Positions 1,375 through 51,587 of a stretch of DNA of 64,000 nt are shown here, in pieces (positions within the stretch are counted from its first letter, which is position 1; every line of letters begins with the position of its first letter). The notes beneath the pieces are model-generated. The model searched no databases. It was not told where the DNA came from and saw only the letters and a program-made list of their open reading frames with translations. Made by a program: the position numbers and the translations under genes. The stretch lies in assembly GCA_054600435.1 (NCBI GenBank), contig BAAIJX010000050.1, positions 1-64,000 on the forward strand. Reading direction: 5' to 3'. This DNA comes from Neophaeotheca triangularis (Eukaryota).

Positions 1375-2958
1375 CTACAGTTTGCTGCCGACTTGACTTT
1401 GCTCCGAGAGCAGCAATGTCTCTGGCCTTGACTCTTGAATAATGTGCCCGATCCGAGCAGCGAACATCATCGTTGGCCACATGGTATTGCAAGCAGGCGA
1501 GGTTGGAATGACAGACGCATCTGCCACCCAGAGGTTTCGTGTGCCGTAGACGGAGCCCCTCTGATCAACGACGCCGCCCTCTCCCCTTGTGGCCATTCGA
1601 CACGAGCCGGTGAAATGGTAGGTGCTTGTGACGTGGGCTTTTATCCACTCGTTGAGAGAGTGGTCGTCTTGCACGGTCGCTGGATCAAGCTCAAGCGGCT
1701 TTCCCAGGACGGACTTCACCTCTGGTGATTCCATCAGCTGGAAGGCTTTCCGCACCGCTTCTCGGCCGCAAGCAAGATCGGTGGCTGTTTCGAAGTAGCG
1801 AAGTCTGACTCTTGGGTGCTCTGTTGCTGCCTTGGACACAATATGCACCGATCCCATTGACTCAGGCTTGTTCACGTTGCATCCGACGCCGGCGACCACA
1901 CTTCTGTGCGATGCTTCGTCGGGCTCACCAGGGCGGAGGATGTAGCTGAAAAACACCATCTGTAGGTCGGTGGCCTTGGGTTTGATACTGGAAGACCATC
2001 TGGCTTGCATTTGAAGCGAGAAGTCTTGTTCATCAAAGGCGCCTGGATGCGGTAGAGCAACGATCGGTAACATGGGATGATCTGACATACACTCGCCAGA
2101 GGGCAGGTCTTCCAGAATGGGAATGTCCAAGGAGCGCAAAAGCGGCGCCGGACCAATTCCTGATCTTTGCAGAATCGTGGGCGAATGCAAAGCGCCAGCC
2201 GCGAGAATGACTCCATGCATTGCCACAACTACGCGATTGTTGGCCAGTACCACGCCCACTGCCTGCCTGCCAGAGAACTTGATTCGTGCAACGGCAGTAT
2301 CAGGCCATACGGTGAGGTTTCGTCCTCTGAATGGAGCAAGGAACGTGTCGGCTGCGCTGATTCGGCGATTTCCTGATCTGCATACAGGAGATGCCCCTAC
2401 CCCCTCGCTGCCTGGCGCGTTAAGATCGTTCGTCCAAGGAATGCCAAAGTTCAGTGAGGCGTCCACGAAAGCACGCTGAATCTTTCCTGCTTGGTCGTAC
2501 GGAGTCCGCATCAAAGGATGAGGGAGCGGGGATCCCTGCCTGCGGCCGGCTTCCAAGTCATCGTACACCTTGGTGACTTCCCCGAAGCCCCAGGTAGCGT
2601 TACCAAGTGCGACCCACTCCTGAGAGTCCGATGCTGTGGAGCGGAGGGCAGTTCCTCCGTTGATGCTACTCCCACCTCCGACGAGTTTTGCTTGCGCTAC
2701 ATTACTGAACTTGGCGTCCGTTAGCTCCATTCGCATGTTCCAGTCGATGGCCTCGTTCGGCTTTACGAATTGGCCTCTCATCGGGACTCGCCGCGCGTCG
2801 CGAATGCTGCTACTCTGATCGTCATTGTCCACGCTATAGTCCGGGCCGGCCTCGATCAGTAAGACTCTGGACTCTCTGTCTTCGCATATTTGGGCGGCCA
2901 CGACGCAGCCGGCGGAGCCAGCGCCAACGACGATGTGGGTAAAGTCATCGGTGTCCAT
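1375..2958 (-). CDS. GMC (glucose-methanol-choline) oxidoreductase, intracellular, intronless
   Basis: 527 aa ORF; FAD motif IVVGAGSAG, LLIEAG, GGGSSING, LQRSGIGP, catalytic region TYHFTGSCRM and CNTMWPT, VADASVIP; no signal peptide. Confidence 0.93.
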   Translation of the reverse strand: MDTDDFTHIVVGAGSAGCVVAAQICEDRESRVLLIEAGPDYSVDNDDQSSSIRDARRVPMRGQFVKPNEAIDWNMRMELTDAKFSNVAQAKLVGGGSSINGGTALRSTASDSQEWVALGNATWGFGEVTKVYDDLEAGRRQGSPLPHPLMRTPYDQAGKIQRAFVDASLNFGIPWTNDLNAPGSEGVGASPVCRSGNRRISAADTFLAPFRGRNLTVWPDTAVARIKFSGRQAVGVVLANNRVVVAMHGVILAAGALHSPTILQRSGIGPAPLLRSLDIPILEDLPSGECMSDHPMLPIVALPHPGAFDEQDFSLQMQARWSSSIKPKATDLQMVFFSYILRPGEPDEASHRSVVAGVGCNVNKPESMGSVHIVSKAATEHPRVRLRYFETATDLACGREAVRKAFQLMESPEVKSVLGKPLELDPATVQDDHSLNEWIKAHVTSTYHFTGSCRMATRGEGGVVDQRGSVYGTRNLWVADASVIPTSPACNTMWPTMMFAARIGHIIQESRPETLLLSEQSQVGSKL

Positions 2959-3339
2959 GGTGCAGCGATGATGTCTCGTGGTGACATGGAAGCCGGAACA
3001 AACTACTAAAAAACGGCTCTGAACCGTCGTGTTGCTGCCCTCACACGCTGCCTGGCAAAGATTTCTTGTGGACTACCATGGGCCGAGGACAGGATGAACG
3101 TGTAGTAGTGAAGCAATGCCACGATCGGCTGAAAGCCTAATCGTTAAAACTCATCTTGCGCCATTTAACCGAGCTTGGCCACGCCCGCTTCGGAAGACCA
3201 ACGGAGGCCATGAATAACGCCATGACTCTATGTAAAGAGGAACTATTGTATCACTGATCGCTGAGATCAAGCAAGTCCAGTAGACTATACACGAAAGTAA
3301 TCGTCAACGCCTGCTCTCCTGTATCTTTGTCATCTCGAC

Positions 3340-4245
3340 ATGGACTTGGTGGGTATTGCCTCAATAATACCCCCCAACCTGCGAGAACAAGCGGTGTACT
3401 AACAGGACCAGTACGATTTGAAGGACCAAACCGCTGTAGTCACTGGCGCAGCACGAGGGATAGGCCTTTCTTTCGCTTTCGTACTTGCTCGAGCGAACTG
3501 CAATGTAGCCATCATCGACGTCCTATCTGAACCGAGCGACGACCTAACGACGTTAAGGTCACAACATGGCATCAAGGCGGAATACTACCAATGCGACATA
3601 ACTTCCCAATCCAAGGTCACGGCAGTCGTGGATGCTATAGAAGCCGCTTTTGGACAGATCGACATCAACATCAATGCCGCAGGGGTCGTGCAAGACCAGA
3701 AGTTCCTGGACACAACGGAGATCAATCTTGCCAGGACTTTTGACGTGAACTTCAAAGGTTCCTTCTTCGTCGCTCAAGCTTGTGCGAGGAGTATGGTGAA
3801 GAAAGTCCAGGCGTCTCACAGCTCCTCCGAGTCAGTGGAAATGACGAAGTCAGGCGGTTGTATTGTCTTCATCGGATCGATCGCAACACATATCGCATCT
3901 TGTGCGCAGACCATCAGCGCATACGTTGCGTCGAAGTCAGCCGTCCGTGGTCTCGTCAAGCCACTTGCAGTTGAGCTGGCGCCGTACTACATCAGAGTTA
4001 ACAGCATCAGTCCCGGCTACATCGCCACGGACATGATGCAGCAGCTGGAAAAGCAGCAGCCTCAGATAGTGAAGCAGTTCAAGAGTGAGACGCCGCTGAC
4101 CGGGGGTGCGAGAATAGGGCAGCCAAGCGACCTTCATGGGCCTCTGCTCATGCTCTGTTCGCGGAAGAGTGGCGGATGGGTAACGGGTCAGGACGTGTTA
4201 GTCGACGGAGGGGCTGGATCTTGGAAGCATGCAGGTGTACTATAG
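3340..4245 (+). CDS. Short-chain dehydrogenase/reductase (polyol/sugar dehydrogenase-like)
   Basis: TGAARGIG, NAG, catalytic YVASK, RVNSISPG. Proposed exon 1 ATG GAC TTG at 3340-3348 and intron 3349-3411 (GTGGGT...CTAAC...CAG), in frame with the 3418 ORF. Confidence 0.92.
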
Positions 4246-4501
4246 TCTCATCCTCTGGGTCGATAGCTGCAGACAACCCGTCGATAAGTTGCACCTCGTA
4301 ATTTTTTGGGCATTTCGAGCATTGCTTGGATATACAGTCCCAGTATCGAACCTTCCAAAGTGTCTACAATCTCACGAAAAGGGTGGTTTACCATAAACAT
4401 GAGTAGACCTTTTGTGATATACAGTCGAGATACTAATCGACCGTAACTATGACTCCCTCTATGCGAACCTGCCCATGACAGCAATACCTTGAAACCTTGA
4501 T

Positions 4502-6318
4502 TCATACATTCTCCGTCTTGGAAAAGTCCTCGTCGAGTTTCTCCACTTGCTCGCCTCGCTCCAGCTCACCAGGTCCTTCCTCAATCCTGTCGACTTCGTC
4601 GAAGAGCATGCGGGCAGCGACTGGCACGCTGCCGCCGGCAGCATTAATACGTGCTTGGTAAGCCTCCATGTTCTTGCTGACCAGGATGTTGTCGCTCGTA
4701 AAGAGCAGATTGACTTCTTCGAGACTTTTGTTGGCAACTTCGGGGTAGAAGAAGTGAATGACCGGAAAGCAGACAATGTTCATGGCTCCGAAGAACAGAA
4801 AGGTTCCGTAACCGAGTTGCTCTAACATGATGGGAATGACGAAGCCGGTGACACCGCAACCTATGGCCCAGCCAACGATCGTCATGGCGTAACCCTTGGC
4901 GCGTACTTCTTGCGGCCAGATCTCCGTCCCGTAGAGCCAGCAAGGCACGATGTTGAACATAGTGAAGAACCACAGGAAGATGAAAGCGAACGCTGCGGCT
5001 GCTGTTCCCAAGGACGTCGCCTGTGCAGGGCTTATGGCTAAGTTATCCTGGGATGTCTTGATGAATGCCCCTACCAAGAAGAGCGATATGCCCTGAATCA
5101 CGAACGATATCAGGAGGGATTGGCGTCTGCCTAGACGATCAATGACGAGCGCGGCGGCTGCTGTTCCGGGAATTCCAAACGTATTGATCAGGCCGCCGAG
5201 CCAGGCTGACTTGTAATCGTCGAATCCAGCAAGCGAGAACAAAGAGTTGGCCCAGGTCGCGATGGCAAGAATGCCGGTCCATTGCTGAATAGTCTGCAGA
5301 AGAGCTCCGGCGATGGCGCGACGGCCAAGGTGCAGTGACCCGGAGTACCGGCCTCCGAAGAGAATGTTGATGTAATTGTTCCTTTTGTGTCGTGAGCCTT
5401 CGACGATGGCGTCGAGCTGCTCGAGCTCGAGAACAAGGGCAGAGTCCTCCGCCGAGACGTCTCCTCGAATTTTCATCAGAATCTCGACCGCCTCCTGGCG
5501 TCGGTGATTAGCGATCAGCCATCTATTCAGTAAAATATGTCAGTCAAATCGAGCAGCATATGTAGTAGAGGGGATTGCCCACCTTGGAGATTCCGGAAGT
5601 AACGGGATCGTAAGCACTACCAGGATCATTGGTATCGCCATGAATGCTAGTGGGAAGCGCCAGCGGAACTCCGGCTCGGTATCCCTAATGCCGAAGTTGA
5701 GCCAGTAGGCTATGACAATCCCCAGGTAGTTTGCGATGAAGACCAGAGCAAAAGTCGACCCACGATCGTGAGAGGAGGATCCTTCCGACACCCATGATGG
5801 GATGATGGTATTGACGAAACCGATGCCCAGCCCCGCGATGATTCGAGCGCAGATAAACTACATGCATGGTCAGCGACAATCAGCACGCTCATTTCTGGGT
5901 GTTTGTGCATACCATGTCCGAATTGACGCTGCCAGCCATGAGCGCTGAGCCAAGAATACAGAAGACAGCACCAATCGCTACACCCTTCTTTCTTCCTATC
6001 TTATCGGCGACCCAGCCTGAGAAGGTCAGTGCCGTGATACAACAGAGGGCCTAGAGAGTTCGTACCTCCAGATAGGGCTCCGAAAATCGCTCCAAAATAG
6101 TATGTAGCTGCCAGACCACCTTGCTTTGTTGAATCGGTCACGACACCCAACTCGCCGATCTTGGCCATCTCGATGAACCCGGGCGTCCCACTGATATTGC
6201 CATAGACCCCTTGATTGTAGCCTTCAAAGATGAGAGCAGTAGCGCTAAAGACGTTGAGGAGCATGAGGAGTACCCTCCCAGGCAAACGTCTCCATATTTT
6301 GGTATCGAGTGAAAGCAT
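4502..6318 (-). CDS. MFS sugar porter family transporter (spliced, about 3 introns)
   Basis: EGYNQG, PESPRW, IQQWTG, IDRLGRR, TEIWPQEVRAKG, PEVANKSLEEV spread over ORFs joined by GT-AG introns; ATG at 6318 (MLSLDTK). Confidence 0.92.
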
Positions 6319-6827
6319 ACTTGGAAGCAACGCTGGCCGTTGTCTTCGCGATGTGGATGCACAGGTCTTCCAAGGTAATCAAATAATGAGCGCGACAGCA
6401 TGTGATAGTCGATTCAAGCAATGGCGGGCTGGATGTGTTCGAAGAGAACCGAGAGCCTGGTCGTAGTTCGAGGGGATGTGTGAAACGAGCAGTAGCAATT
6501 AATACTACTAATGCGTCCCTACGTAGGAACATTGTACGCCGAGCGGAGAAGGTCAGGTTTCAAACCTGGACTTCGCTTGAATGGAGCGGCTAAAAGGCTT
6601 CTGCGTTCCCGAGAGGCGAAGCTACCGCCGCCGAGGCATGCGCGGCAGTCCCGGATGTCAAGTAGTCCAACCGAAGGCATTGATTACACGCTGTTGGTTC
6701 CGGACCAGATTGACAGAGAAGAATGCACGCCTTAACTTGAGCTTCGTCGTTGAGTGTCCCAATCTCGTACCGAAAGGTTTGTGAAAGCACGACAGTCCCT
6801 GGTCCAAACACCCGGCAGCTTCTAGCC

Positions 6828-8000
6828 ATGGCGGGCGATCGCACTACCTGTCGTTGGGCCATCTTGTCGCTCTCAAACATTGCCAGCGTTTTTGTGCCAG
6901 ACATTCTACTTCCCAGAGCAGATTCGGAGAAGTACGTCCATGAAGTCGTTGCTGTCGGAACGACGAGGACCGCCGGGGAAGCGAGGAAATGGCTCGACGC
7001 CAATGGAGTCCGCGACACCTCAGTCCAGATCTACAACGACACAGAGAGACTCCTGAAGGAAGGTGACTTCGACGTCCTTTACATATCGTCACCTCATCCC
7101 CTCCACTACAGTCACGTCACGAAAGCACTCGAGCATGGCCGAAATGTGCTCGTCGAGAAGCCAGCAACCATGAATGCTCAACAGTTCGCCGCTCTGATAG
7201 ACCTGGCGCAACAGCGAGGCGTTGTGCTGATGGAAGCAATGTGGACACGGTACCTACCAGCTAGTCGCTACTTCGAGAAGGACTTACTACCACGCATCGG
7301 CGAGGTGAAGCGAGTCTTCTCCGACTTCTCGTTCCCAATCGTGGGCAAAGATCTCTCTCGCGACTCGAGATTTCTGGACAAGCAAGCCGGAGCGGGAGCC
7401 CTACTCGATCAAGGCGTTTACGCGTTGCACTGGATAGAGCTTGCGCTTCACGGACTTGCCGGCGATCATGGCAAGACGGATGTTGCCTATTCTAATAGCA
7501 TTAGCGTACCTGGGGTTGTAGGCGAGGTCGACGACATTGATACCATCGTCTTGACTCATTCCCGTGCCGGCAACGAGCAGCAGTCCGGCGTCGCGATCTG
7601 TTCAACGAGCATGACGATTCCTGGCTCGAGCCAACCTGCATTTTACCGGCGCTTAGAAGCAAAGAAACTTGGACCTGCGGTGAAAATAGAAGGTGCGAAG
7701 GGGTCGGTAGCAATCCCATTCCCTCCGATCCGTCCGCAGAAGCTACACATGCTGTGGTATGGTGAAGATCATCTTGACGAGACGGGAATGGAGAGGGAGG
7801 AGATCGTCGACAGACCTGTAGAGCGGGGTTGGGGCTTGTGGTATCAAGCAGACGTGATGGCGAGCAAGGTGATTGCTAGACCGCAGAATGCAGGCGGGGA
7901 TGTTGTCGGACATCTTGCCTCCATGAGGGTCTTGCGCTGGATGGACGAGGCGCGGAGGCAGGCCGGGATTACTTACGAGTCTCAGCTCGGGAAGGTTTAG
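6828..8000 (+). CDS. Gfo/Idh/MocA family oxidoreductase (dimeric dihydrodiol dehydrogenase/xylose dehydrogenase-like)
   Basis: DVLYISSPHPLH, VLVEKP, LMEAMWTRYLP, GALLDQGVY; first ATG at 6828; intronless. Confidence 0.9.
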   Translation: MAGDRTTCRWAILSLSNIASVFVPDILLPRADSEKYVHEVVAVGTTRTAGEARKWLDANGVRDTSVQIYNDTERLLKEGDFDVLYISSPHPLHYSHVTKALEHGRNVLVEKPATMNAQQFAALIDLAQQRGVVLMEAMWTRYLPASRYFEKDLLPRIGEVKRVFSDFSFPIVGKDLSRDSRFLDKQAGAGALLDQGVYALHWIELALHGLAGDHGKTDVAYSNSISVPGVVGEVDDIDTIVLTHSRAGNEQQSGVAICSTSMTIPGSSQPAFYRRLEAKKLGPAVKIEGAKGSVAIPFPPIRPQKLHMLWYGEDHLDETGMEREEIVDRPVERGWGLWYQADVMASKVIARPQNAGGDVVGHLASMRVLRWMDEARRQAGITYESQLGKV

Positions 8001-8366
8001 CTGTCATCGGCAATGGCACGGTACGGAGCTGACTGTAAGCGGTGACGCTCTTGGATCTGGTAGATATGAGTAAAATGCAAATGAGGTTAGCCATTTGTTC
8101 GAGTCAAACGTCGGCCCCGATGCGCGCGCTTGCGAGTGCCCTCTCATTGCAGTGGCGAATTAAGCGAGCCGATGAATAATTAAACATTCAACCGAGAGCT
8201 CCGCAACCGAGATCGGGATGAGCATTGCTACTGCGTAATTGAACGTTCCCTTTCGCTCTTAACATCGTTCGAGTCGTGCCATGATACTTTGTCCATTTTC
8301 CGGTGCCGCAGTCTGCAGCAAAAGACCTGATCGTTGTGACGAAAGAACACACCAAAGCCCTTTAAC

Positions 8367-9716
8367 ATGGCAATCCACGAAAACAAAGCGGCGACAGTCA
8401 ATGGGCATAGAGTCAAGGCAAGTCCTGGGCTGGACCTCGTTGTCCTTGGTCTTAACTCGGGAACGTCAATGGATGGTATTGACTGCGCCCTCTGCCATTT
8501 CCAACAAGAGTCTCCGGATGCACCTATGCGCTTTACGCTGCTGGAGTACGACGAGATACCTCTTGAGCGGACGATCAAAGACAGAGTCCTGCGGATGATC
8601 TACGAGAACACGACAACACCTGAGGAGCTATCTGAGGTAAATGTCATCCTTGGCAATACCTTCGCAAAAGCGGCCAAAGACTTCGCCAATAAGAAGGGCT
8701 ACCCACTCACAAACATCGACGTCATTGGATCCCACGGACAGACGATCTGGCTGCTGAGCATGCCAGAGAAGGGTCAAGTCAGATCGGCGTTAACGATGGC
8801 GGAGGGCACTTTCATAGCTAGCCAGACCGGGATAACGACAGTAACGGACTTCCGAGTGTCCGACCAAGCAGCAGGGAGACAAGGAGCGCCGCTCATTGCG
8901 TTCTTCGACGCTTTGGTCCTGCATCATCCGAACAAGCTGCGAGCCTGCCAGAACATCGGCGGAATTGCGAATGTCTGCTTTATTCCGCCGGACAAAGACG
9001 GGAGGCTTGATCCGGCTTACTTCGATTTCGACACCGGGCCGGGTAACGTTTTCATCGACGCCGTAGTGAGGCGCTTCACGGATGGAGCACGGGAGTATGA
9101 TAAAGACGGAGCCATGGGTAAAGCAGGAACGGTCTGCCAGGACATGGTTGACGATTTCCTCACGAGCCATCCTTACTTCGCAAAGCCGATACCGAAGACG
9201 ACCGGGCGAGAAGTGTTCCGAGAGTCTATGGCCACCGATCTGGTAGCACAGGGTCTTGAGAGAGGTCTGACCAAGGATGATATTGTAGCGACCGTGACAC
9301 GTATCACGGCACAAGCGATCGTCGAACACTACCGAAGGTACATGCCGAGGGACTGCGGTCCGCTGGAGGAGATCTTCATGTGCGGAGGTGGAGCAAAGAA
9401 CCCCAACATCACTTCCTATATCCAGCAAGCTTTCCCAGAAACGCGGATCGTCATGCTGGACGAGGCAGGAGTGCCGGCTGATGCAAAGGAAGCCATCACG
9501 TTCGCATGGCAGGGTATGGAGGCAATCGTGGGTCGAAGCATTCCCGTCCCGGATCAAGTCGAGACAAGGGCGCCATATGTGTTGGGAAAGATCAGCCCTG
9601 GGCGGAACTTCAGAGCAGTCATGCGAAAGGGACTGGCATTTGGCGGGCTGTCGGATATCCTAGAGCCAGTGAGCGAGCTCTCTATTTGTCTGGCGGGGAA
9701 GGCGAAAGGCGTCTAA
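8367..9716 (+). CDS. lgk: Levoglucosan kinase (AnmK/UPF0075 family 1,6-anhydrosugar kinase)
   Basis: [85 protein letters not shown]; closely matches my recollection of fungal (Lipomyces-type) LGK along its full length. Confidence 0.93.
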
Positions 9717-9827
9717 TCAGCCAGATTTCAGCGCAGCCAGATTGTAACAACTCTTGAACTAAGTGTACCCATTCCATACTATGTAGTTCAGTTGTCCCCG
9801 CTTCCCGCCATATGCGTTACCCAAGTT

Positions 9828-11726
9828 TTACGAAACGTCTTGAATGTCGAAGATATTGTCGAAATTTCCAAGTAGTTCAGGCGGCAATTGGAATGGAGAC
9901 AGATCTAGTGGATCTTCTCCGACGAGGGGTGGCATGAAATCTTGTGGAAGATGTTCGAGGGTCGAATCTTCCCCTGGTTGCGCTGGTTCGCCGGTCATTC
10001 CATACGCCAACCGTCCAGAAGCCATGTGTTGATCCAGTTTCGCAACTTGATCCAACAGCCGCTCACTGGCTCCTTTGCTTGCGTGCAGTCCTTCGAGGTT
10101 GGACAGCATATGTGACATTGAAAGCATGGTCTCTCTGATGTTCTGGTAGTCTCCCTCTGAAATCTGCTGTCCTAGTACTGATCCCAGTAGTTGCGCAATG
10201 ACAGCCAGGTGGAAGAGTAACGGTACGCTGATGGCGTGATGGTACTCGATCGGGACAGCGAGGAAAGCACTGAGAACCTCGTTGGCGACTTTACACCGTT
10301 CAGATGTGGTGGCTCCAGTAGCAGACAGCAATACCATGCTCAGTAACTGCAGGGTTGCAATGATATCGGCCGTTTGAAAGCCGAAGCGGTCCAGCTTAGG
10401 TCTGTGGGTGTAAGACTTCACCTCCTTGAAGCACTGTGGCAAGTCGGAGTACATGCGGTCAACATGGCTGCGTACACGCTCATAAGAGAGGTTGGGTGTC
10501 TCTTGAAGTACGCTTTGGATGTGGTTATGTCGGAAGGCCGAGCCAGAACGGGCAGGCGAGCGAGCAATGACATTCTCAATCAATCGATACAAGTCAGTGA
10601 CAAAGTTCCGACCAGCGATCCAGCTGGTCACTAAAGAGCTGCCGGATTGCTGGGATGGCACCTCGTTGAGAGTGGCGAAGCCCTCGTCATCGAAGGAATC
10701 ATCATCGGCCACAGTAGGATACTGGACATTCGACTGCTGCTCACGACTTCGAATGACCCCTCCCCAAGCTATCGAGGTGAAGACGTCAAGGGTGTAGATT
10801 GACCAAAAGAGTCGGCGACGCTCTTCCATTTCGACGGTGCCGATATTCCGTGGCCAATTTGCTTCATCGTGCAAGCCGTACACAGCAGTGAGCGTATGAT
10901 ACTGGCCAAGATGCCGATGCATGTTGCGAATATTTAAACCCTGTATTGCAGCGAGTGCGAGGACAGCATGAGCTTGAAGGATCGTGAGGTCCGGCCTTGT
11001 TTTCAACATACAGGGCTGCTTGATAGCCTGTTCGTAGAAGTTCGCCGGTGTCGCCTGTTGGAGTGCCGCAAAATTTCGACGTGAGCTAGAGACTGCGCCA
11101 TCACGTACACGAGCGGCTACCAACGAGCATACGGACATTGTAAGTGCGAAAAGGCCAGGATCTGATGTGTATTCCGCGCGGGAGATACGCCTCACAAACG
11201 ACGGTTGGTGAAACAATGGGAAGATAGGATAGACGATCTCGAAGTAGAGCTCTACCAAATCAACAACCGTGGCTTGCGAGCTGACGTCTGGAGCACGCCA
11301 TGGGACTGGTGTCGAGTACTGCTCGTCGTAACCGTAGGTCATCGAGCGGGAACAGCCCGACCCTACAGACCTGGACTCATTCGCAAATCTCACCGGCGAC
11401 GACGTCGGCTGCTCGAGCTGCGCATCCACATCAGTGCTAGAGGGCGGCTCTGGCAGTCCACGAGGACGATTATCCGCGAGATCGGCGTCCTCCGTGTGGC
11501 GTGCAGGGCCCGGGCGGCGTGGCGGTGCTCCTCTCCTTTTCGCCTGGCGACTGAAAGTACAGGCTTGGCCAAAGCGAATGCAGTTCTCGCAACCTGGGCC
11601 GTTAGGCTGTGGCCGGCAACGAATGCTCCGACCGTGGCAGTAGTCGCATGCCCGGGTGATGCGCCGCTGCTTCTGCTTGGGGGTTCCGCCACCAGTCGCG
11701 GTGCTGCCAGGCATGGCAGTGGACAT
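9828..11726 (-). CDS. Zn2Cys6 transcription factor with fungal-specific TF (middle homology) domain
   Basis: RACDYCHGRSIRC...CENCIRFGQACTF; YFEIVYPIFPLFH; EERRRLFWSIYTLD. First ATG 11726 (alternative 11714). Confidence 0.94.
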   Translation of the reverse strand: MSTAMPGSTATGGGTPKQKQRRITRACDYCHGRSIRCRPQPNGPGCENCIRFGQACTFSRQAKRRGAPPRRPGPARHTEDADLADNRPRGLPEPPSSTDVDAQLEQPTSSPVRFANESRSVGSGCSRSMTYGYDEQYSTPVPWRAPDVSSQATVVDLVELYFEIVYPIFPLFHQPSFVRRISRAEYTSDPGLFALTMSVCSLVAARVRDGAVSSSRRNFAALQQATPANFYEQAIKQPCMLKTRPDLTILQAHAVLALAAIQGLNIRNMHRHLGQYHTLTAVYGLHDEANWPRNIGTVEMEERRRLFWSIYTLDVFTSIAWGGVIRSREQQSNVQYPTVADDDSFDDEGFATLNEVPSQQSGSSLVTSWIAGRNFVTDLYRLIENVIARSPARSGSAFRHNHIQSVLQETPNLSYERVRSHVDRMYSDLPQCFKEVKSYTHRPKLDRFGFQTADIIATLQLLSMVLLSATGATTSERCKVANEVLSAFLAVPIEYHHAISVPLLFHLAVIAQLLGSVLGQQISEGDYQNIRETMLSMSHMLSNLEGLHASKGASERLLDQVAKLDQHMASGRLAYGMTGEPAQPGEDSTLEHLPQDFMPPLVGEDPLDLSPFQLPPELLGNFDNIFDIQDVS

Positions 11727-13863
11727 TAAAGAGCCGTCGATCTTGATACTGAAGGAATATGCCCCTAGTCCGGGAGACCGGGAGGATAGAGCAGTTGTAC
11801 ACGTAGGAGAAGGCGGCGTGGGCGCGAGTTGCGAGTGATGGGCGCGCACGGCGCGACGAGGATCAGCGGTAGACTTTGAGATTCAGAGATCATCCACTCC
11901 ACCCATCTCACTGCCCCTCCACCTGTTGCGACAGCATGAGAAATTGCATTAGACGTTGAACGCGAGTCTACGTTCCGAACATGGCTGGGACAGATGGTGG
12001 TCGTCTAGGCTTTGCCAAGACTGTTTCTGCCTGAGGCATTCAAAGGGTCACTCCAACATCACCTGGGCGCGTTCAGGCCAATATCTGATTGCCCAACTAC
12101 ACTGATCACCACACAATAACATCGCCACAATTGCGCCCCACGACATGTCATACAGGGCGGCGAATCCATGCGGACGCTCCTTCCCCCTTCCACAGCGCCT
12201 GCGCGGCGATAGCACATAGTGTGGACCTGCAATGAGGGTGCATGGAAAGACGATGCGGGCGAAGGCACCTTAAGGCTATACCTGGTGATCACAAGCTTGA
12301 TGAGGAGCATACGTGTGACTCAGTACAACATTGGGTATGGTAGGTGGAGGCTGGACCGAGACCATCTCCGGGCGCTTTTCATTGAAGAAGGCCAAGTACA
12401 TCTTGGCCAATATATCCTCTTTCGTAACGCCAGCACGTCACGACTGCTGTTAGGGCGATGGCTTGACCGTAGAGAGCCTATCGCGAGGAAAGGCTGTGCG
12501 CAACGCGGTCTCAGACTAAGCGATCAGCCTAGGCTTTCCACAATCCAATCTTGTCACCAATATGCTTTCGCGCTCTCCGCCCTCTTTGGTCGTTCCCGCT
12601 CAATGCTTTTGGCTGTCACCATTCCCACCGAGTTTTCATACACTGCTCAAACCTTGTTCCCGACTCCTTTCCTCGCAGCCTTCGCAGCCATTGCGGTCCG
12701 CGACATGACTGGCGGAACAAAGACTCTGGGCAGCACCGTTGAGGCTTCAGCCGAAGTGATGGTGAGGATGGTGGACTTAGTGGAGTCGGAGTCGGGCTGT
12801 TAAGCTTGGAGTAGGGCGATTCGGAACCTGAGGGCGGCAAAAGTTGAAGAGCGGTAGTGAATGGACGGTTCGATAACCTGCAATCGAAAGCTACTCGAAG
12901 TAGAGTCGAGCGCTGGTCGAGACAAAACGATAGCTGTGAATACGTCAGCGTTGTTGGCAATGGAAAGGCGAATCGGATGCTGAATGCTGTACCGAAGGTG
13001 GGAGTCGGAGGAAGGCCCACATTCGATCGAGCTGAGATAGTCAATTAGGGTTTGACCAAGCTGTAGCAATGTGAGTGAGATTGGTTGTTTCCAGAGCGAC
13101 GAGATGCCTCGGAAGGAGCGGGGATGTTCAAGCAGAAGAGTTGGTGGTAGCTTTGGATCGCTCTGTGGGCTCTGAGTTGCTGAAGTCGTAACTACGCTTT
13201 CCTGGAGGATTGGTGTCACCAAAGTGGTATCCTGCCCATCAGCTCCGTCAAACGGCACTTCCCGCGCACAAGCTTGTGAAGGAAGCGAGTATAACAGGTG
13301 TCTCGTTCAAATTCTCCAAAACGCATGAGGTATCTCCGACAGGATTGCAAGTAGGAGGACACACAATCAACATTGCCAATGTCGCCCGGGCCTTGTCGCC
13401 TTGCCAAGACTAAGCATGGGACCATCTGGAATGGGCTCCCTCGAGCGATGAAGCGGCAGAGAGACCAATTCACATCGCTCATCGTGCTGTCAAGAGGCCT
13501 TGGAAAGCCAGAAACGTCGAGCTTGTTTCGAGTCAAGCTAGTCGGTGCTTCAGAACTCGCCTATCTGATCGGCCTCAAGTCCGTTTCTACAGCAAATGTC
13601 CATCCTAGGCTTCATAGCTGAACAATGTTGATAGTCGCATGTCGATCTCCGCAGACTATCTCGAATGGAGGACTTGCGCTTGCAGTCAAGAGTACTACTA
13701 GGGACATCTTTCGAGGGGCACTGTAGCGGTAGTACTGGATTCGATGACAGTGACCACCCTCTCTAAGCTACTAATTAAGTATGTAAGGAGCGCAAACCTG
13801 CGAGCTCCTTCCGATAGCTCCCTGTGGCTCTCCACGGGGATGTGCACCGACATGCTCCTTAGA

Positions 13864-14720
13864 CAGACTTGTCATCAATCAAGCCTAGTCAAATCAAAAT
13901 CAAATCGCTACCTGTTTTGACTTGAACTTGGCGTCGATCAAGACCAACTCGATTGATTTAGTAGACCTACCAAGATTAATTCTAACTATGGCTTGATTAG
14001 AAGGCTTCTCAAGGCTTCTTTTAGACTCGTCGCGGGGAACTATCGCTCTATTAGTAGCTCGCTAAATAGGCGCTATATGCTCTACTAATTACTATTAGAG
14101 TTCTATAATAGTAGTAGTAAGGACTACGTATTAGTCTATTACTACCTCTTCTTATTCTTATAGGGTGTTAACTCCGGTTATAGTATTAGGGGAGTCCGCT
14201 AGGTTAGTGTCGTTAACCCGAGGGCATAGCGAGCGCGATAGTACTATAATGTCTAAGCGAATCTTAACCTAAAAAGGTTCTAAGATCGAATAGAATTGTA
14301 AGACTAAGACTATAACTCGGTTAGGATTATAGTGTAGCGAGGGCGGAGCGTAATAATAGTAATAATAGTAATAGTCCTTTAATATAGAAACTATTCGATA
14401 GCAGATAGGAGACTTCACTATTAGCTATCTTATATACTTTCGTAGTGTGTACGCTTAGTACTCCCGAGCTACTCTATAGCTTAGGCCGCCGATGTCCTAC
14501 TAGCGCCGTGGTCGTAACAAATAGCGAAACCTGAATCTCTTCACTCCTTATCTATAGTCTAGAATATCGGGAGTGAAGAGGTAGTAAACACGCTTAGCCT
14601 ACCTAGCGAGCATTAATGGCGGCTACCTTTCGCATGGATTATATAATTCAAGAAGGCCGGTTTTAGCCTAGGACTCGAACGCGAGTCCTAAGCTTTAGGG
14701 GGAGGTAAGGGACACCTAAC
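13864..14720. mobile_element. RIP-degraded DNA transposon fragment starting with a TIR of the same family as the 23.1-24.0 kb element
   Basis: CAGACTTGTCATCAATCAA at 13864-13882 (one mismatch to the 23098 TIR), followed by ~850 bp of TpA-rich, stop-riddled sequence with no ORF; right end approximate. Confidence 0.65.
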
Positions 14721-15815
14721 CACTAAGCATGGCTGCGGTAGTTATGATAGTAGGATTTGTTGGTAACCGAATATATTACCTGCAGCTCTGTTACGTTCAC
14801 TACGGATTCAAAGGTAAGTGTGTCTTGGCAAAGTACACACCGTGCGGTATGCAGGCGACGACGGATACTAGCACTGCGCTCTCCTGAATGCTGAAAGTAG
14901 CATACGGGCGTGGGCACCCCTTGACTTTTCGAGCGCCCAGTTACGGTGCATCAGGACATCTCTGGCTTCTATTCAATATTACATCTCCAGGTCATTCGTC
15001 TCTTACTTACCCCCCTTTCCCTCGTCTACCGCTCCTTTACTTCCCACTCCGATGCCTTTGCTCTCCTTTTCGTCCTCCTTTGCCCTTCCCTTTCCCACCT
15101 TCTCGCCATCACTTGCCCCTTCCCTTGCCTTGTCCAGTCTCCCTGAACTCACCTGCACCCTTGGCTTCACCAATTTTCTTCCCCTCCTCTACAGACTTCG
15201 TCCGTTTCTTTTTCTCCTTCCCCTCTTCCCGGTACGGCCCCTCTACCGCCCTCTTCTCCTACCCTTCCTCTCGTTCACCTTTCTTCTCCAGCTCCCGCCG
15301 CTCCTCCGTCTTCCTACCTCCTTTCCTCCGAGCATCCTCAGCCGTCCTTCGCTTCCGAGACTCCACGGCCCTGCCTTGGGCGGATCTAGTTTCGAAGCCT
15401 TCTTCGAAAGCGTCTTCTTTTTGGAAAGAGCTGTTTGCTTAATAGACATGTGGTGGGAGAAATGCGTGGCTCCGGGACTGAGATGGGAGATGAAGGAGGA
15501 ATTTGAAACCGGTCCAGGGAAAAGGCACCGGAAGTGGAGTTGTCGTGCTTGCTCGTTTGTGTGCTCTAGCAGCGTTTGGGTGATGTGGTCATAGTGTTTG
15601 CTCCGTTCGTTGCTTTGCATGGTTAGCACTCGCTACCTCGAACCAGCTGTGTGAGTTGGTGTGAGAGAGTACCCACCAGCAGCATATCTGCGCAAAAACA
15701 CAGGCGATATTCAGTCCGGTTTGGCAGGCTCCCGTGAAGATTCAGCGAGCGTATGATCTCTTGTCACCAAAGCAAGAATGGGAAGCGAATGGTAGACTGT
15801 TCGACTGGTCGTAAT

Positions 15816-18188
15816 TCACCGCCGCTTCCTAGCTCCCCCGGGTCCGTCTCTGTCCGGGGCCAATCCAGCATATCGTCGGCCCGGTATAGGTTCGCTGACC
15901 GCTTGTGACGTGAAAGAGCAGTGGCCAACCCCGTTCTGACCATCCTCGTCTCCGGTTCCCACGACTCCCCACTGGACCGGCAAGAAAGCTGCATCGACAT
16001 CATCCGCCGGTGGGTGACAAGCCGCTGCTATGGCGAGACTGCAAGATCCAGCTACAGGCATGGTGCTTGCGAATTTGCGGAAACCTAGGCCCACTAATGC
16101 TAGAAGCATGATCGAGCCTAGTACGATACACGCAAGGATGGCTGGGGGACTGAAACCCGCAGCTGTGATTTTCCACTCTAGTTGCTCTAGATCGTCCTTG
16201 ACGAAATCGATCCTGGTGAGGAAAAGGGCTTGCGAAATCAGTGTATGCAAGACCGTCGTGGATATTATGAGCGTAATGCTGTACTGGTAGGGCAATTGCA
16301 GCCAATACGTGCTTCTCTGCGAACCGTGCTCTACGGTGACTCGGAGACCTTTTCGTTCGACCGCGTAAGTGCTCCACTCGTGCGCTAGAAGCATGCTAGT
16401 AAGAACGCCATTGTACATGAAGTAAAGGAAGGATACGATCGCCTGAGGAAGATTGACCAGAAGGACATGGGCGAGAAGAGCCGAGACGCCAAGTGCTGGT
16501 AGACCAGTGTCTACTAGAAGACGGGTATCAGCTCGTCCGAAACCAGTGTCCAAGAACGCATTAAGTGCATTGAGGCCCATCCACTCTGCAACCGTCGTGA
16601 GCGCTGTCGAGAGGAGTATCGAGGTAGTGACGAGAGCTAATATGCAGAGAGTTAGAGCTGATGACCAGCGTCTTAAGCTGACGGCAGCGAGCCAGCGTTG
16701 CCTAACGTTGCGATGCACATGACCAGAACTTTGTTGATGATTCGGTTGTGTAGATTTCGGACGGGCAACGGCACCGTTTTTAGACAACAGGCAGAGATTG
16801 CCCGCCAACTCGTCGGGCCGGTCCAGGTAGCTTGCAACGGCATCCCCTAAAGTGACCAGAGAAGGTATCTTTCCTATCCATAGAGCTACGAGCATGGCAA
16901 CCGTCTTAATCGCGTTGCAAGCAACCACGACTATTAGGATCGTGTCGCTGATCTGTAGCTTACAGCCTTCTGGCTTCAGTTCTGAGAGGCAGTAATCAAT
17001 TCTCTTCCCTCCAAGGGTCCATGGTTTGCCCGACGCCTCGATAGTACTAGGACTACATTGATGCCTATCATCTTGTTCTATGTCCGTGCAGATCCACCGA
17101 TGGGTGTTCTGCTTCGTGTCATCGCCTATCCGCACCCCTCCGTTCAGTTCCGAGTAAGCAAAAACTGTCTGTTCGGGAACATCTCCCGGCTCTCTAGTAA
17201 TTGCAAGCAAGTTGCTACGTCCGGTAAGAAAGTTTGTTGCATGTTTTGATATGCACTCTGCGGGGTCAGTGATGTTTTCAACATACGAGCGGTTTTTGTA
17301 GATGTCGTGGTATGTAAACCTTCGCTGCAAGCTGTTAACGGCAGGAGCATATGTTGACCACGCAAGCCGTCCGTTTCTTGCGTTAACCATGCTCCAGTTC
17401 CCGGTAAGTTCGCTCTTGAAAAAGTCCTCGTTGACGGCGGCCATGCTGTAAATTTCCGCGTTTGCCGTCTTGAACACGGCTGAATTGTATAGCAGATGAA
17501 TTGGGATGCTAGTGAATCCCAAGACGAACCACAGCACTGTTCGCGCCCGCTTCACCCGGAACAAATTTCTGAGACTAGCAACCCCTATATCTAACCACCT
17601 CCCATCCATATGAGCTTTGTCAATTTCGTCGCGGGTCGGCGCGGTGAGGCACTGCATGGAGTAGTTTGAAGCGCTCAACATCGTCGAGCTGAGGATGTTG
17701 ATAAGAAGATGAAGTGCTATTGACAACCATGTAACCGTCTGGCAGTTGCCACTGAATGCTGTGAAGATTTCTCCGGGTTCTTCGTGGATCTCGCCGTATC
17801 CGTCGACAACGAAATTTACATCTTCATTATTGTTTCGGCGAACGACAATCCAAATCGTCACCGCCAGGTTGACAACCATAACTAGAAAGGTTGAAATGGA
17901 AGCCATGGTCACTCCAAAACGCCACCCTTTCCATTTCTTCTTCCTCTCCCTGATGGCGGCGGTCTCCCGATGCGTCACGGTCGTCGCTGAAGGTCCAGGT
18001 TTTGCCGAGTGCCCACTTTCAGTTTGCGGAAGCAAGGACTGCTCGGACTCGTCAACATGTGGGAGCAGCTTCTGGGTGGACATGTAGCTAGCAGCTCTCG
18101 CCCTAGGCGGTTCTTGAAGCTCCGCAAGGCTGTTTGGCTCTTCTTGAGGTATATCACTGTTCCGCCCGGTTCCTGACTCCAGTGTCAA
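15816..18188 (-). CDS. Fungal multi-pass membrane protein, DUF6536-like
   Basis: 790 aa ORF with LHLLINILSSTMLSASNYSMQCLTAPTRDEIDKAH...WLDIGV, QRSTYWLQLPY, GSCSLAIAAACHP, and many hydrophobic segments. Start uncertain (first ATG ~18083). Confidence 0.82.
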   Translation of the reverse strand: MTLESGTGRNSDIPQEEPNSLAELQEPPRARAASYMSTQKLLPHVDESEQSLLPQTESGHSAKPGPSATTVTHRETAAIRERKKKWKGWRFGVTMASISTFLVMVVNLAVTIWIVVRRNNNEDVNFVVDGYGEIHEEPGEIFTAFSGNCQTVTWLSIALHLLINILSSTMLSASNYSMQCLTAPTRDEIDKAHMDGRWLDIGVASLRNLFRVKRARTVLWFVLGFTSIPIHLLYNSAVFKTANAEIYSMAAVNEDFFKSELTGNWSMVNARNGRLAWSTYAPAVNSLQRRFTYHDIYKNRSYVENITDPAECISKHATNFLTGRSNLLAITREPGDVPEQTVFAYSELNGGVRIGDDTKQNTHRWICTDIEQDDRHQCSPSTIEASGKPWTLGGKRIDYCLSELKPEGCKLQISDTILIVVVACNAIKTVAMLVALWIGKIPSLVTLGDAVASYLDRPDELAGNLCLLSKNGAVARPKSTQPNHQQSSGHVHRNVRQRWLAAVSLRRWSSALTLCILALVTTSILLSTALTTVAEWMGLNALNAFLDTGFGRADTRLLVDTGLPALGVSALLAHVLLVNLPQAIVSFLYFMYNGVLTSMLLAHEWSTYAVERKGLRVTVEHGSQRSTYWLQLPYQYSITLIISTTVLHTLISQALFLTRIDFVKDDLEQLEWKITAAGFSPPAILACIVLGSIMLLALVGLGFRKFASTMPVAGSCSLAIAAACHPPADDVDAAFLPVQWGVVGTGDEDGQNGVGHCSFTSQAVSEPIPGRRYAGLAPDRDGPGGARKRR

Positions 18189-19421
18189 GGCCTCGCGCGA
18201 CTCATCGCCGTAGGGCCAAAAGCTGTGAACAGAAAGATAGCCCGGGACACTGCGGACGCGAAAAAGGTCAGCTACATTGGCACCGACACGGTCCCCGTAC
18301 TTTTGCGGGCTGGTTACCTCGCACTGGGAATCTCCCGCAGCTCGACAGAAGTGCTCTGCCCTTCTGGATCGTCGTGAGACTGCCCGTTTGTGAGTCTCTT
18401 GTAATTGTGATTCTGTGCAGACGACATTGCGTGTTTGTGGTGTCGTAGTAAGATGAAGAAGAAGAGTTCAGAAAGGAGCCCAAGGTCACAAAAATGCACC
18501 TACATCCGCCGAGCCTGGCAAGTACGGTGTTGCGTCTTAAGAGTGAACATGCTGGATCACATGCAAGAGAAGGTCGTTGCGGGCTGGGCGCTTAATTTAA
18601 CTTGCATATAGGAGTCCGTGGCTGACGCACAAGCGACCGGTGAAGACTTGAACTTCACCCATTCGCTCAAGCTACGGAGGCAGCCGCCAGGCTCTATTGC
18701 CTTACTCCACCACGAAAAGGGTGGCGGAATAGGGACGTACTGCAGGCACGGAACCACTGCGAATTAAACCTCTGCAACTCTGGCTTTCAGTTCAGGGCTT
18801 CGGTTAATACTACGTACGATGTGCCGCTCTGGCGAGTACGCAAGCATTTCGCCACTGGGAGCGAATGTTTTCGCCATCAGAGAATGGTAGTCAGTCGGAC
18901 CATCTGCGCAAGCTGTATACCTACCAAGGAGGGCGCAGGGAATTGTCAGTGCTAGACTGGTATCCCTGGCCAACTATTCCGAGGGAATCAAGGCCTTTGA
19001 TCCTACCCAATAATATGAGGCCGCGAATGCCGTAGGATTCTGGCGTTTGCGCGTTAGGGCTTCGCTCATATTGGTAAGGCGGGGGCCGCTTGCTGTTGAA
19101 TACTGGAGTAGGATTCGACATCTTTGTCTCGCCGATACAGACATTTTTTCATTACAAAAAAAAAAAAGAGCACATTGTTACAGTCTATATACTAATCCTA
19201 CCAAGTTTCACGATTTGTCGAGTACTGTACGTTGCGCACGAGCTACGGGTAGTATCTGAGAAGAGGTATAGTCTCCGCTTCCCGTAACGCGACAAGCCAC
19301 AAGCCAGGGACGCGACGACACTCTAGCGATATCGACATCTACTCGCTACACCATACTCTGTCAGTAACACAGTCTCGTATAAAGCAGAAAAGACTACTGT
19401 TCGTTTAGACAGTCGAGAAAT

Positions 19422-27100: not shown

Positions 27101-27625
27101 ATGTATGGACCTGGTCTACTTTCGATTAGTTTCTTGCCACGAGAAATTGGCATCCTCTTGGCCCAAGAAATGCTCACCGAGCGAGTAGATAGATGCCAGC
27201 CTCAGCAGCAGCATCAAAAAATTGCTCGAACCCGAAGACACCCTCGGCGGTAAATTGCCCAGGGTTGCCCTCGAGTAAAGCCCAGTCGACATAAAAGCTC
27301 ACACCAGTGTATCCAAGAGCCTTGATCTTTTGGAAAACGTCAAGCCAGAGTCCTGGAACTGGGAGTCTCCACGGGTGAAACTCGCCAGAGTAGAACATGA
27401 TGCGCTCGCCACGGATGAAAAGAGAATGCTCGTCGAAAGAGACCTGGACTGGGAGTTAGCATCCGCCAATGGTACATGATCTGGGATGGATCGACAGACC
27501 AAGTCGTCGATAACATCTCGCTTGCCTGGATGCGTGACCGTATACCTGTTGCTGCCCAAGGTCAAGGCGGATGCCGTTGTAGAGAAGAGGCACAAAGCCT
27601 CCGTTAGCCATTTCATCGTCACCAT
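24154..27625 (-). CDS. lacA: Secreted GH35 beta-galactosidase (several introns)
   Basis: Signal peptide; [38 protein letters not shown] (acid/base), PEFQGG (nucleophile), [18 protein letters not shown]; first intron 27499-27444. Confidence 0.95.
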
Positions 27626-32010: not shown

Positions 32011-32504
32011 CCAGCTTTGGTGATGAGGTGATGGCGAAGGACGTGCATGTACGTAGTACCTCGCTGCTGAGGTTGGACGCAAGTACGTAGGTAAGCGTGA
32101 GGCCGTCGAGCGAAATGGATGCTTACGAGAGACTGAAGAGAGCCAGTAGTGATGTTGAAGGCATCCATCCTTGTTTGACGAGCAAAGACAAAGACAAAGA
32201 CTCAGCAGCATCTCATCCCGTGAATTGCCGGTGTCGGACCACCCGAACTTCCGAGTCACCCATGACTTCGCTTCTCGCGAGTCACAAGCCTCGCTATTTC
32301 TCTTTTTTCTTACCACATAACAATAAGCAACGACAATGGCAAACAATCACCGTGTTGGCATCACTCCACCGAGAAATCGACATCTCCGCGGTATACCAAC
32401 CATTCAAACAAGTTCAAAAAGCGACGCAATCGCCAACAATAACTACTACCTAACTATGTCCACCCATCAAACATTAATATTACCAACACCACCAACATCC
32501 AAAC

Positions 32505-51301: not shown

Positions 51302-51587
51302 GGTTGTAGTTGCCGTTGTGCTTGTGTTGTTGAAGAGGTGTCGAGAGATGAGGTGAGGTGAGGTTAGGTACTGCTGCCTTGACGCCGGTGGAGCTGTCGC
51401 GACTGAGGATTGGGCGTGCACCTTCCTCACTCCAAGTCCCTCTACCACATGAAGAGGCAGGCAGGAAGGTAGGCAGGAAGTCAGGCAGGCAGGCAGGCAG
51501 GTGCGGACCTTCACCCCCAACAATCCAGTCCGGGCAGTCCAGCCAGCGGTCAGGCAGCGACTTGACCCAACAAATCAACGCAACAGA

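Follow-up and report, generated by a model that had tools for sequence, protein, structure and literature searches.

A candidate levoglucosan catabolic gene cluster with a recurrent promoter element near a telomere of Neophaeotheca triangularis

Introduction

Levoglucosan is the main sugar of burnt plant matter and of pyrolysis oils. Biomass burning accounts for about 100 million tons of anhydrosugars per year, and as of 2016 levoglucosan was the only one of these for which metabolic pathways had been reported (PMC4752346). The closest described systems are a levoglucosan cluster in Bacillus smithii, in which lgdA-lgdB1-lgdB2-lgdC are joined by an ABC transporter and a regulator of the LacI type (PMC7676230), the levoglucosan kinase (LGK) of Lipomyces starkeyi, an object of single-gene engineering studies for which we found no publication on its genomic partners, and a run of three Zymoseptoria tritici genes, ZT1E4_G1889–G1891, tabulated as an AnmK, an MFS sugar transporter and a transcription factor (PMC7317419). 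Here we describe six contiguous genes at positions 1375–11726 of a 64,000-nucleotide stretch of Neophaeotheca triangularis DNA (assembly GCA_054600435.1, contig BAAIJX010000050.1, positions 1–64,000; hereafter, the window) coding for a GMC oxidoreductase, a short-chain dehydrogenase/reductase (SDR), an MFS sugar porter, a Gfo/Idh/MocA oxidoreductase (Gfo), an LGK and a Zn2Cys6 transcription factor. On balance, we favor reading this locus as a conserved fungal gene cluster for the use of levoglucosan and probably of related burn-derived sugars, with the redox genes in the same regulon.

In the mechanism that we propose, the porter would import levoglucosan, and LGK would open the 1,6-anhydro ring and phosphorylate the sugar to glucose 6-phosphate. 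The adjacent Zn2Cys6 factor would control the cluster genes, acting at 8-bp NGGNTAAA units that are repeated in tandem, head to tail, upstream of LGK and at similar putative boxes in three promoter regions of the window cluster, of which the GMC–SDR region has the strongest and the porter–Gfo and Gfo–LGK regions have weaker ones. Gfo, the SDR (of keto-sugar or polyol type) and GMC would belong to the same regulon, and the trio would most likely process, by way of keto intermediates, anhydrosugars that are not accepted by LGK. A search of the literature, mainly open-access and with supplements aside, yielded nothing on a fungal LGK cluster, native transporter, regulator or promoter element, and no characterized fungal pathway of this composition, in agreement with what the original prediction for this DNA had supposed.

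Results

Organization of the cluster

Pfam searches and gene models confirm the six contiguous genes that had been predicted, as well as their orientations, with GMC and SDR transcribed divergently and likewise the porter and Gfo; a Pfam scan of the open reading frames (ORFs) revealed no further recognizable genes among the six. The LGK gene (8367..9716, rightwards-transcribed) is intronless and codes for a 449-residue protein that matches Pfam AnmK (PF03702) over the full-length domain (profile positions 3–366 of 367; E = 4e-85, 286.5 bits). The protein aligns nearly without gaps to the crystallized L. starkeyi LGK over 424 residues (E = 5.7e-203), with a far weaker match to the best bacterial AnmK (E = 2.1e-47). 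The motif DFDTGPGN is identical to that of L. starkeyi LGK in the alignment and is invariant in 21 sequences; its aspartate is presumably the catalytic Asp212 of the L. starkeyi enzyme. The predicted activity is most likely the ATP-dependent conversion of levoglucosan to glucose 6-phosphate. The LGK family is very large in the Pezizomycotina: 7,983 of 8,000 scored candidates reach an E value of 0.001, and the best match other than itself is 80% identical.

The porter gene (4502..6318, leftwards-transcribed) encodes a candidate levoglucosan importer and has four exons, at about 6318/6264–6065, 6014–5913, 5857–5579 and 5520–4502; the deposited 532-residue model starts at 6264, and its protein, P0121, is identical to the porter and corresponds to an NCBI 'hypothetical protein' of Neophaeotheca triangularis. 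Two of the exons match Pfam Sugar_tr (1.4e-38 and 3.1e-21; profile positions 106–199 and 196–452), and the last exon alone scores 124.7 bits with TIGR00879.

The transcription factor gene (9828..11726, leftwards-transcribed) codes for a 632-residue protein with Pfam matches to Zn_clus (6.3e-5) and Fungal_trans (1.8e-19). With an E-value limit of 1e-30, its family comprises 145 representative clusters, and the ten representatives that were looked up are called 'hypothetical' or generic Zn(2)-C6 proteins, with one automatic name, TBS1, and none named XlnR. An Atlas search with the factor returned generic Zn2Cys6 clusters only, and the relatives of the cluster factor are an uncharacterized family.

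Linkage of the kinase, porter and factor in other fungi

Metagenome contigs were scanned with an LGK alignment, yielding 80 loci (L-numbers) that fall into 61 groups at 95% nucleotide identity, of which 57 are of fungal type and four code for bacterial AnmK proteins at 33–36% identity. The loci were searched with the window proteins by tblastn, and the 25 fungal groups that extend 3 kb or more from LGK in at least one direction are here called long groups. A sugar porter match is present in 21 of the 25, usually divergent from LGK and 0.9–2.9 kb from it (one is at 6 kb), and a Zn2Cys6 factor, mostly full length and 28–39% identical, is found in 16, with identities of 32–39% for the full-length relatives. 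A Pfam scan of 246 of the 260 neighboring ORFs (omitting 14 ORFs of L055 and L065, whose tblastn layouts duplicate those of L054 and L028) revealed additional porters in L060 and L077 and identified no other recurrent family beside LGK. The original prediction had been staked in part on conserved linkage in other fungi, and in this it is upheld, since the majority of loci that could be examined have LGK together with a porter and the factor.

The porters beside LGK represent three subfamilies with mutual identities of just 27–39%, and the LGK–porter pairing has therefore arisen, or been kept, repeatedly. Loci L060, L062 and L077 contain distant LGK relatives (54–60% identity) with the third porter subfamily and no factor orthologue.

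Locus tags in other genomes give a similar picture, with orthologues of the window porter (62–72% identity) adjoining LGK. The LGK and porter tags are adjacent in Fusarium solani (MRS44_013412/MRS44_013413) and in Exophiala oligosperma (LTS17_003646/LTS17_003647), and are separated by one gene in Exophiala xenobiotica (LTS15_002471 and LTS15_002473). Using contigs of equal size as a proxy for co-location, 17 are common to the top-120 LGK and porter lists, and the closest relative of the factor (58% identity) is on a 24,055-bp contig, with the closest LGK (80%) and a 77% identical porter on contigs of equal size.

A six-gene copy in a distant lineage

All six families are also present within 11.3 kb in locus L018, which is at 385–407 kb of a 1.1 Mb contig; the grouping is thus more than a chance arrangement. 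The telomere-proximal position that was part of the original prediction is not conserved, L018 being non-subtelomeric. The L018 proteins are 74% (LGK), 60–65% (porter), 57% (SDR, 274 residues), 52% (Gfo), 49% (GMC, 521 residues) and 38% (factor) identical to those of the window, and the two factors have the zinc-cluster motif RACDYCHxRSIRC in common. In L018, the leftwards-transcribed Gfo, rightwards-transcribed porter and leftwards-transcribed SDR genes form a block that is in synteny with the reverse-complemented window, and the LGK, factor and GMC genes are in different positions. Gene content is retained despite this rearrangement.

The carriers of the two loci are distant, as the window proteins rank 64th to 120th of 120 against L018, and the closest named relatives of the L018 proteins are in the Chaetothyriales, with 84% identity between the L018 LGK and a protein of Exophiala xenobiotica and with Chaetothyriales entries nearest to the L018 Gfo. 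The two carriers probably belong to different classes.

Gfo recurs more widely. In L073, a gene coding for a Gfo 57% identical to that of the window is directly upstream of LGK, as it is in the window, and the Gfo and porter tags are adjacent in Vermiconidia calcicola (LTR37_005495/005496) and Cadophora sp. M221 (IFR05_011859/011860); a record labelled Tremellales sp. has Gfo and porter on a single 9,904-bp contig. By the equal-size proxy for co-location, 16 contigs are common to the porter and Gfo lists, 12 of them no longer than 60 kb, and four are common to the LGK and Gfo lists. For SDR and GMC, membership in the cluster is suggested by two loci, the window and L018.

A tandem element in the cluster promoters

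The sequence CGGCTAAAAG emerged when the cluster promoters of the window were compared with those of L018, where every one of the three divergent promoters has a single exact copy. With no more than one mismatch it occurs six times in L018, with 0.88 expected and none of 100 shuffles reaching six. Enrichment of 7- to 9-mers upstream of LGK gave no clear motif, and dyads of the CGG-N-CCG type are not common to five or more promoters. The core GGCTAAA has 70 occurrences in the 753 kb of the window plus the loci, 21 of which are within 2.5 kb upstream of LGK. The sites in LGK promoters are organized as head-to-tail arrays of two to five 8-bp NGGNTAAA units, 100–570 bp before the LGK start, and such arrays precede LGK in many Pezizomycotina.

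A position weight matrix (PWM) was trained on 11 sites from other loci, with the window and L018 excluded. The top score in the window (17.3, the next in the whole 64 kb being 12.9) is at 3125, in the GMC–SDR promoter, and the top eight matches in L018 are all inside its three cluster promoters. Among 35 held-out groups, 14 score above the 95th percentile of 308 background windows, where about 1.75 are expected. A dyad pattern, GGNTRAANGNNTRAW, has only two matches in the window (0.24 expected), one in the GMC–SDR promoter and the other ahead of LGK at a distance of 174 bp. The dereplicated loci, 471 kb in all, contain 25 matches, of which 20 are within 1 kb upstream of LGK (41-fold denser than elsewhere); the other five are in the promoter between GMC and the transcription factor gene in L018, or precede the porter gene in L034 and L037. 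In these latter two loci the porter gene comes after LGK, and a tandem box of its own immediately precedes it (L034:13204–13226 and L037:13051–13065), additional to the one before LGK; in this lineage the element follows genes, not position.

In the window, the divergent GMC–SDR promoter (boxes at 3125..3171) contains three tandem 8-bp units from 3126, CGGCTGAA, AGCCTAAT and CGTTAAAA, and an additional leftwards-oriented unit, CGGTTAAA, at 3164–3171. The divergent porter–Gfo promoter has a rightwards-oriented box (6586..6605; PWM rank 11) with an exact CGGCTAAAAG at 6587–6596, and the LGK box, GGTTGAATGTTTAAT, is in leftwards orientation at 8179..8193 (PWM rank 8) and corresponds to the dyad match 174 bp before the start codon. 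The presence of a common and specific element in the cluster promoters fits a self-regulated unit.

Array units such as CGGCTAAA and CGGTTAAA fit the consensus preferred by the regulator XlnR, CGGNTAAW (PMC6486530), and the classical XlnR site is GGCTAAA (PMC6323846). The arrays may be bound by the cluster factor or by XlnR; the cluster factor is favored because the arrays track LGK clusters closely, whereas single CGGNTAAW sites show no enrichment across the window (six, with 9.2 expected).

The three redox enzymes

The Gfo gene (6828..8000, rightwards-transcribed) codes for a 390-residue protein of the dihydrodiol/D-xylose dehydrogenase type. It matches Pfam Gfo/Idh/MocA (1.8e-15), its best solved relative is the dimeric dihydrodiol/xylose dehydrogenase 2o48 (2.4e-22), and its EKP and D-x3-Y motifs, formed by residues E110-K111-P112, D194 and Y198, show no variation across 29 orthologues. 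In UniRef, Gfo orthologues are labelled D-xylose 1-dehydrogenase. With the NCBIfam D-xylose 1-dehydrogenase model NF041392 it scores 43 bits, below the cut-off of 350, but this model is archaeal and so constitutes a weak test. The original prediction had mentioned that bacteria use a Gfo/Idh/MocA levoglucosan dehydrogenase (LGDH), which the window Gfo does not resemble: the score with the corresponding model, NF052479, is 31 bits with a cut-off of 650, and the match to solved chain 6a3f, which we take to be LGDH, is weaker (7.3e-7) than that to the dihydrodiol dehydrogenase.

The SDR gene (3340..4245, rightwards-transcribed) codes for a classical SDR with a match to adh_short_C2 (8.8e-51) and a YxxxK motif, and its solved relatives are of the gluconate 5-dehydrogenase, KduD and mannitol dehydrogenase types. 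It has two exons, the first at 3340–3348 (MDL) and the second at 3406–4245, separated by a 57-nt intron (3349–3405); the intron is our own inferred GT..AG model, with a CTAAC branch site (GTGGGT ... TACTAACAG). By general rules the cofactor preference looks NADP-type for Gfo and NAD-type for SDR, and such pairing is usual in fungal oxidoreductive sugar routes.

The GMC gene (1375..2958, leftwards-transcribed) is intronless and codes for a 527-residue FAD oxidoreductase in which both domains are full length (GMC_oxred_N, 7.4e-31; GMC_oxred_C, 5.8e-35). By eye there appears to be no signal peptide, as the protein begins at the FAD-binding motif, and a putative His/Asn pair is seen near the C-terminus. 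Its best solved relatives are choline dehydrogenase (1.9e-47) and hydroxymethylfurfural (HMF) oxidase (5.5e-44), and the best NCBIfam match is MftG, at 263 bits and under the cut-off of 387; GMC thus appears about equidistant from the three. Family members of other subfamilies are found 6–8 kb from LGK in two loci, a GMC-family gene at L012:2697–4165 and a Gfo-family gene at L008:18707–19916, the latter with no tblastn match. Among the long groups, Gfo and SDR are each present in one (L018), and GMC in two, L018 and L012, with the L012 protein only 34% identical over 142 residues.

The role that we prefer for the redox trio, tentatively and as less likely than not, is the one suggested in the original prediction, namely that oxidation followed by reduction might epimerize mannosan or galactosan into levoglucosan.

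Flanking DNA and other features of the window

The cluster borders given in the original prediction agree with what we find. The telomere repeat (CCCTAA)n, about 20 copies as judged from the sequence, fills positions 1–119, and the distance from the last repeat to the GMC stop codon is 1,255 bp. On the centromere side, the cluster is bordered by an AT-rich, high-copy repeat (13400..14800) that had been described as degraded DNA and is recognizable by composition, dinucleotide indices and read depth as resembling the product of repeat-induced point mutation (RIP). Its G+C content is 45%, with TpA/ApT of 1.49 and (CpA+TpG)/(ApC+GpT) of 0.75, compared with 0.61 and 1.23 within the cluster, and in the probable source run the read depth in the bin at 14,052–14,713 is about 6,300, as against about 130, a roughly 48-fold excess. 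Many diverged contig pieces map to 14052–14713, and the ORFs there have no protein domain. The ORFs at 120–1375 and 11.9–15.8 kb match no Pfam family and have no relative in the metagenome loci, and we therefore name no seventh cluster gene.

Beside the repeat is an 883-residue ORF with DUF6536 (15816–18467, leftwards-transcribed), which is a member of a multi-copy family, since the source run has other contigs 80–90% alike over parts of it. Other features of the window include a GH35 beta-galactosidase gene with several exons (24154–27201, leftwards-transcribed), a flavohaemoglobin gene (32478–33749, rightwards-transcribed) and a 1,695-residue ORF with DUF7611–DUF7614 (46487–51574, leftwards-transcribed).

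In a run labelled as seawater metagenome, a few contigs of 151–263 nt with 0–4 differences (98–99% alike) correspond to window positions 7883–10800, spanning the Gfo, LGK and factor genes, and the fungus of the window, or a very close one, may be present at low depth in that sample. Two further runs with the same organism label as the probable source run contain only fragments less than 90% alike, which is no proof of absence.

Discussion

Weighing the explanations

Enzyme, transporter and regulator genes are contiguous and are kept so across lineages, and the promoters of the member genes have a cis-element in common. The proposal of a self-regulated uptake and catabolism unit is supported in its linkage, in the recurrence of the six families and in the shared element, and is weakened by the rarity of the six-gene form, which is found in just one of the 25 long loci. 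Several other observations also weigh against a six-gene cluster with its own regulon. LGK is by itself sufficient for the entry of levoglucosan into glycolysis, Gfo is present in only two of the 57 fungal groups and SDR and an orthologous GMC in one each, and none of Gfo, SDR and GMC reaches a curated NCBIfam equivalog. The window boxes are weak before LGK (PWM score 9.1) and in the porter–Gfo promoter (8.8), and the upstream region of the factor gene itself has no box by PWM. Both the PWM and the dyad pattern were devised with these data already in view, so that only the held-out tests are unbiased, and in these 21 of the 35 groups have no box above background, including the factor-bearing L008, L009, L036 and L041. 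Lastly, the common element could reflect the general XlnR regulon, as its unit equals the XlnR consensus. The four factor-bearing loci each have LGK, a type-B porter and the factor, with no box above background in the 800 bp upstream of LGK, and may use a diverged element.

The most substantial alternative is that the levoglucosan unit consists of LGK, porter and factor only, with Gfo, SDR and GMC forming a neighboring sugar, polyol or alcohol module (for example, for aldose oxidation) under the general XlnR plant-biomass regulon. The fit of the array unit to CGGNTAAW (PMC6486530, PMC6323846) is consistent with such a module, as are the D-xylose 1-dehydrogenase names of the Gfo orthologues, the dihydrodiol/xylose dehydrogenase as the best solved relative of Gfo, and the absence of the redox genes from 24 of the 25 long LGK loci. 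However, two distant lineages have kept the three redox subfamilies within 11 kb of LGK even though the genes are rearranged, and Gfo is flanked by the porter and LGK in the window and immediately precedes LGK in L073. The window porter, moreover, is 64–66% identical to porters paired directly with LGK in L030 and L031, and while single CGGNTAAW sites are unenriched the tandem dyad is confined to cluster promoters. We regard the separate module as a possible but doubtful explanation.

A kinase-independent oxidative route analogous to the bacterial LgdA-B1-B2-C pathway seems improbable. By such a route, GMC or Gfo would oxidize C3, beta-elimination and hydration would follow, and SDR or Gfo would reduce 3-keto-glucose to glucose. 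GMC is of interest here because pyranose oxidase, presumably a GMC-family enzyme, is capable of the first step. That enzyme oxidizes levoglucosan at C3, and the product decays spontaneously by beta-elimination (PMC8056934); the bacterial redox steps, moreover, are both performed by Gfo-family enzymes (PMC7676230). Nonetheless, the half-life of 3-keto-levoglucosan is 16 h at pH 7 and 30 °C, which is slow for metabolism (PMC8056934), and no gene of the LgdB1/LgdB2 type (sugar phosphate isomerase/epimerase) was found by Pfam in the window ORFs or L018. The Gfo score with the LGDH model is far below its cut-off, and the route would duplicate LGK. Least probable of all is that the redox enzymes detoxify smoke and char compounds (HMF, furfural, dicarbonyls and levoglucosenone), for although HMF oxidase is the second-best solved relative of GMC and dihydrodiol dehydrogenases reduce dicarbonyls, the similarity of GMC to HMF oxidase does not exceed that to other GMC enzymes, choline dehydrogenase included, SDR and Gfo have relatives of the sugar type, and the sole transporter of the cluster is a sugar porter.

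Significance

If the locus is a levoglucosan cluster as we propose, it has several potential uses. Transport is a limit in engineering yeast for levoglucosan use, with residues of the yeast transporter Gal2 described as hindering levoglucosan (PMC9476349), and the locus supplies natural candidate levoglucosan transporters in three porter subfamilies. The candidate regulator and its compact promoter element are a possible levoglucosan-responsive switch, and Gfo, SDR and GMC are three candidate enzymes for other anhydrosugars. A broader and rather unlikely proposal is that the cluster reflects an ancient, dedicated fire-sugar regulon in filamentous ascomycetes, with an array-binding regulator from an uncharacterized Zn2Cys6 family, a specific levoglucosan symporter, LGK and, in some lineages, a redox pathway that would feed mannosan, galactosan or other anhydrosugars into levoglucosan; if true, such sugars would thereby have their first catabolic route in any organism.

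Comparison with known systems

Fungal catabolic clusters that include a dedicated Zn2Cys6 factor are a familiar kind of system, and what is new here are the cluster members, the promoter element, and the linking of a kinase route with redox enzymes. The B. smithii lgd locus resembles that of the window in having the same substrate, in being self-contained, and in combining a transporter and a regulator with Gfo-family oxidoreductases; however, as described (PMC7676230), it is without a kinase and needs two isomerase/epimerase-type enzymes that are absent from the window, and its ABC transporter and LacI regulator are of different families from the window transporter and regulator. The Z. tritici trio has the same three families in a row and comes from the same class as the source of the window, but in that table (PMC7317419) the genes are listed merely as neighbors of an unrelated locus, with neither a functional reading nor redox genes given.

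The Aspergillus XlnR and AraR pathways, as presented in PMC6323846 and PMC6486530, have a CGGNTAAW-type site in common with the LGK arrays and also pair NAD(P)-dependent oxidoreductases and sugar porters under a Zn2Cys6 factor. The head-to-tail arrangement in two to five copies with 8-bp phasing is a feature of the window and the loci, and the relatives of the linked factor that were looked up carry names other than XlnR. The window LGK shares the AnmK fold family with the L. starkeyi enzyme (structures 4yh5, 4zlu and others); unlike the kinase of those single-gene studies, it is accompanied by porter, regulator and three redox enzyme genes and by a common promoter element.

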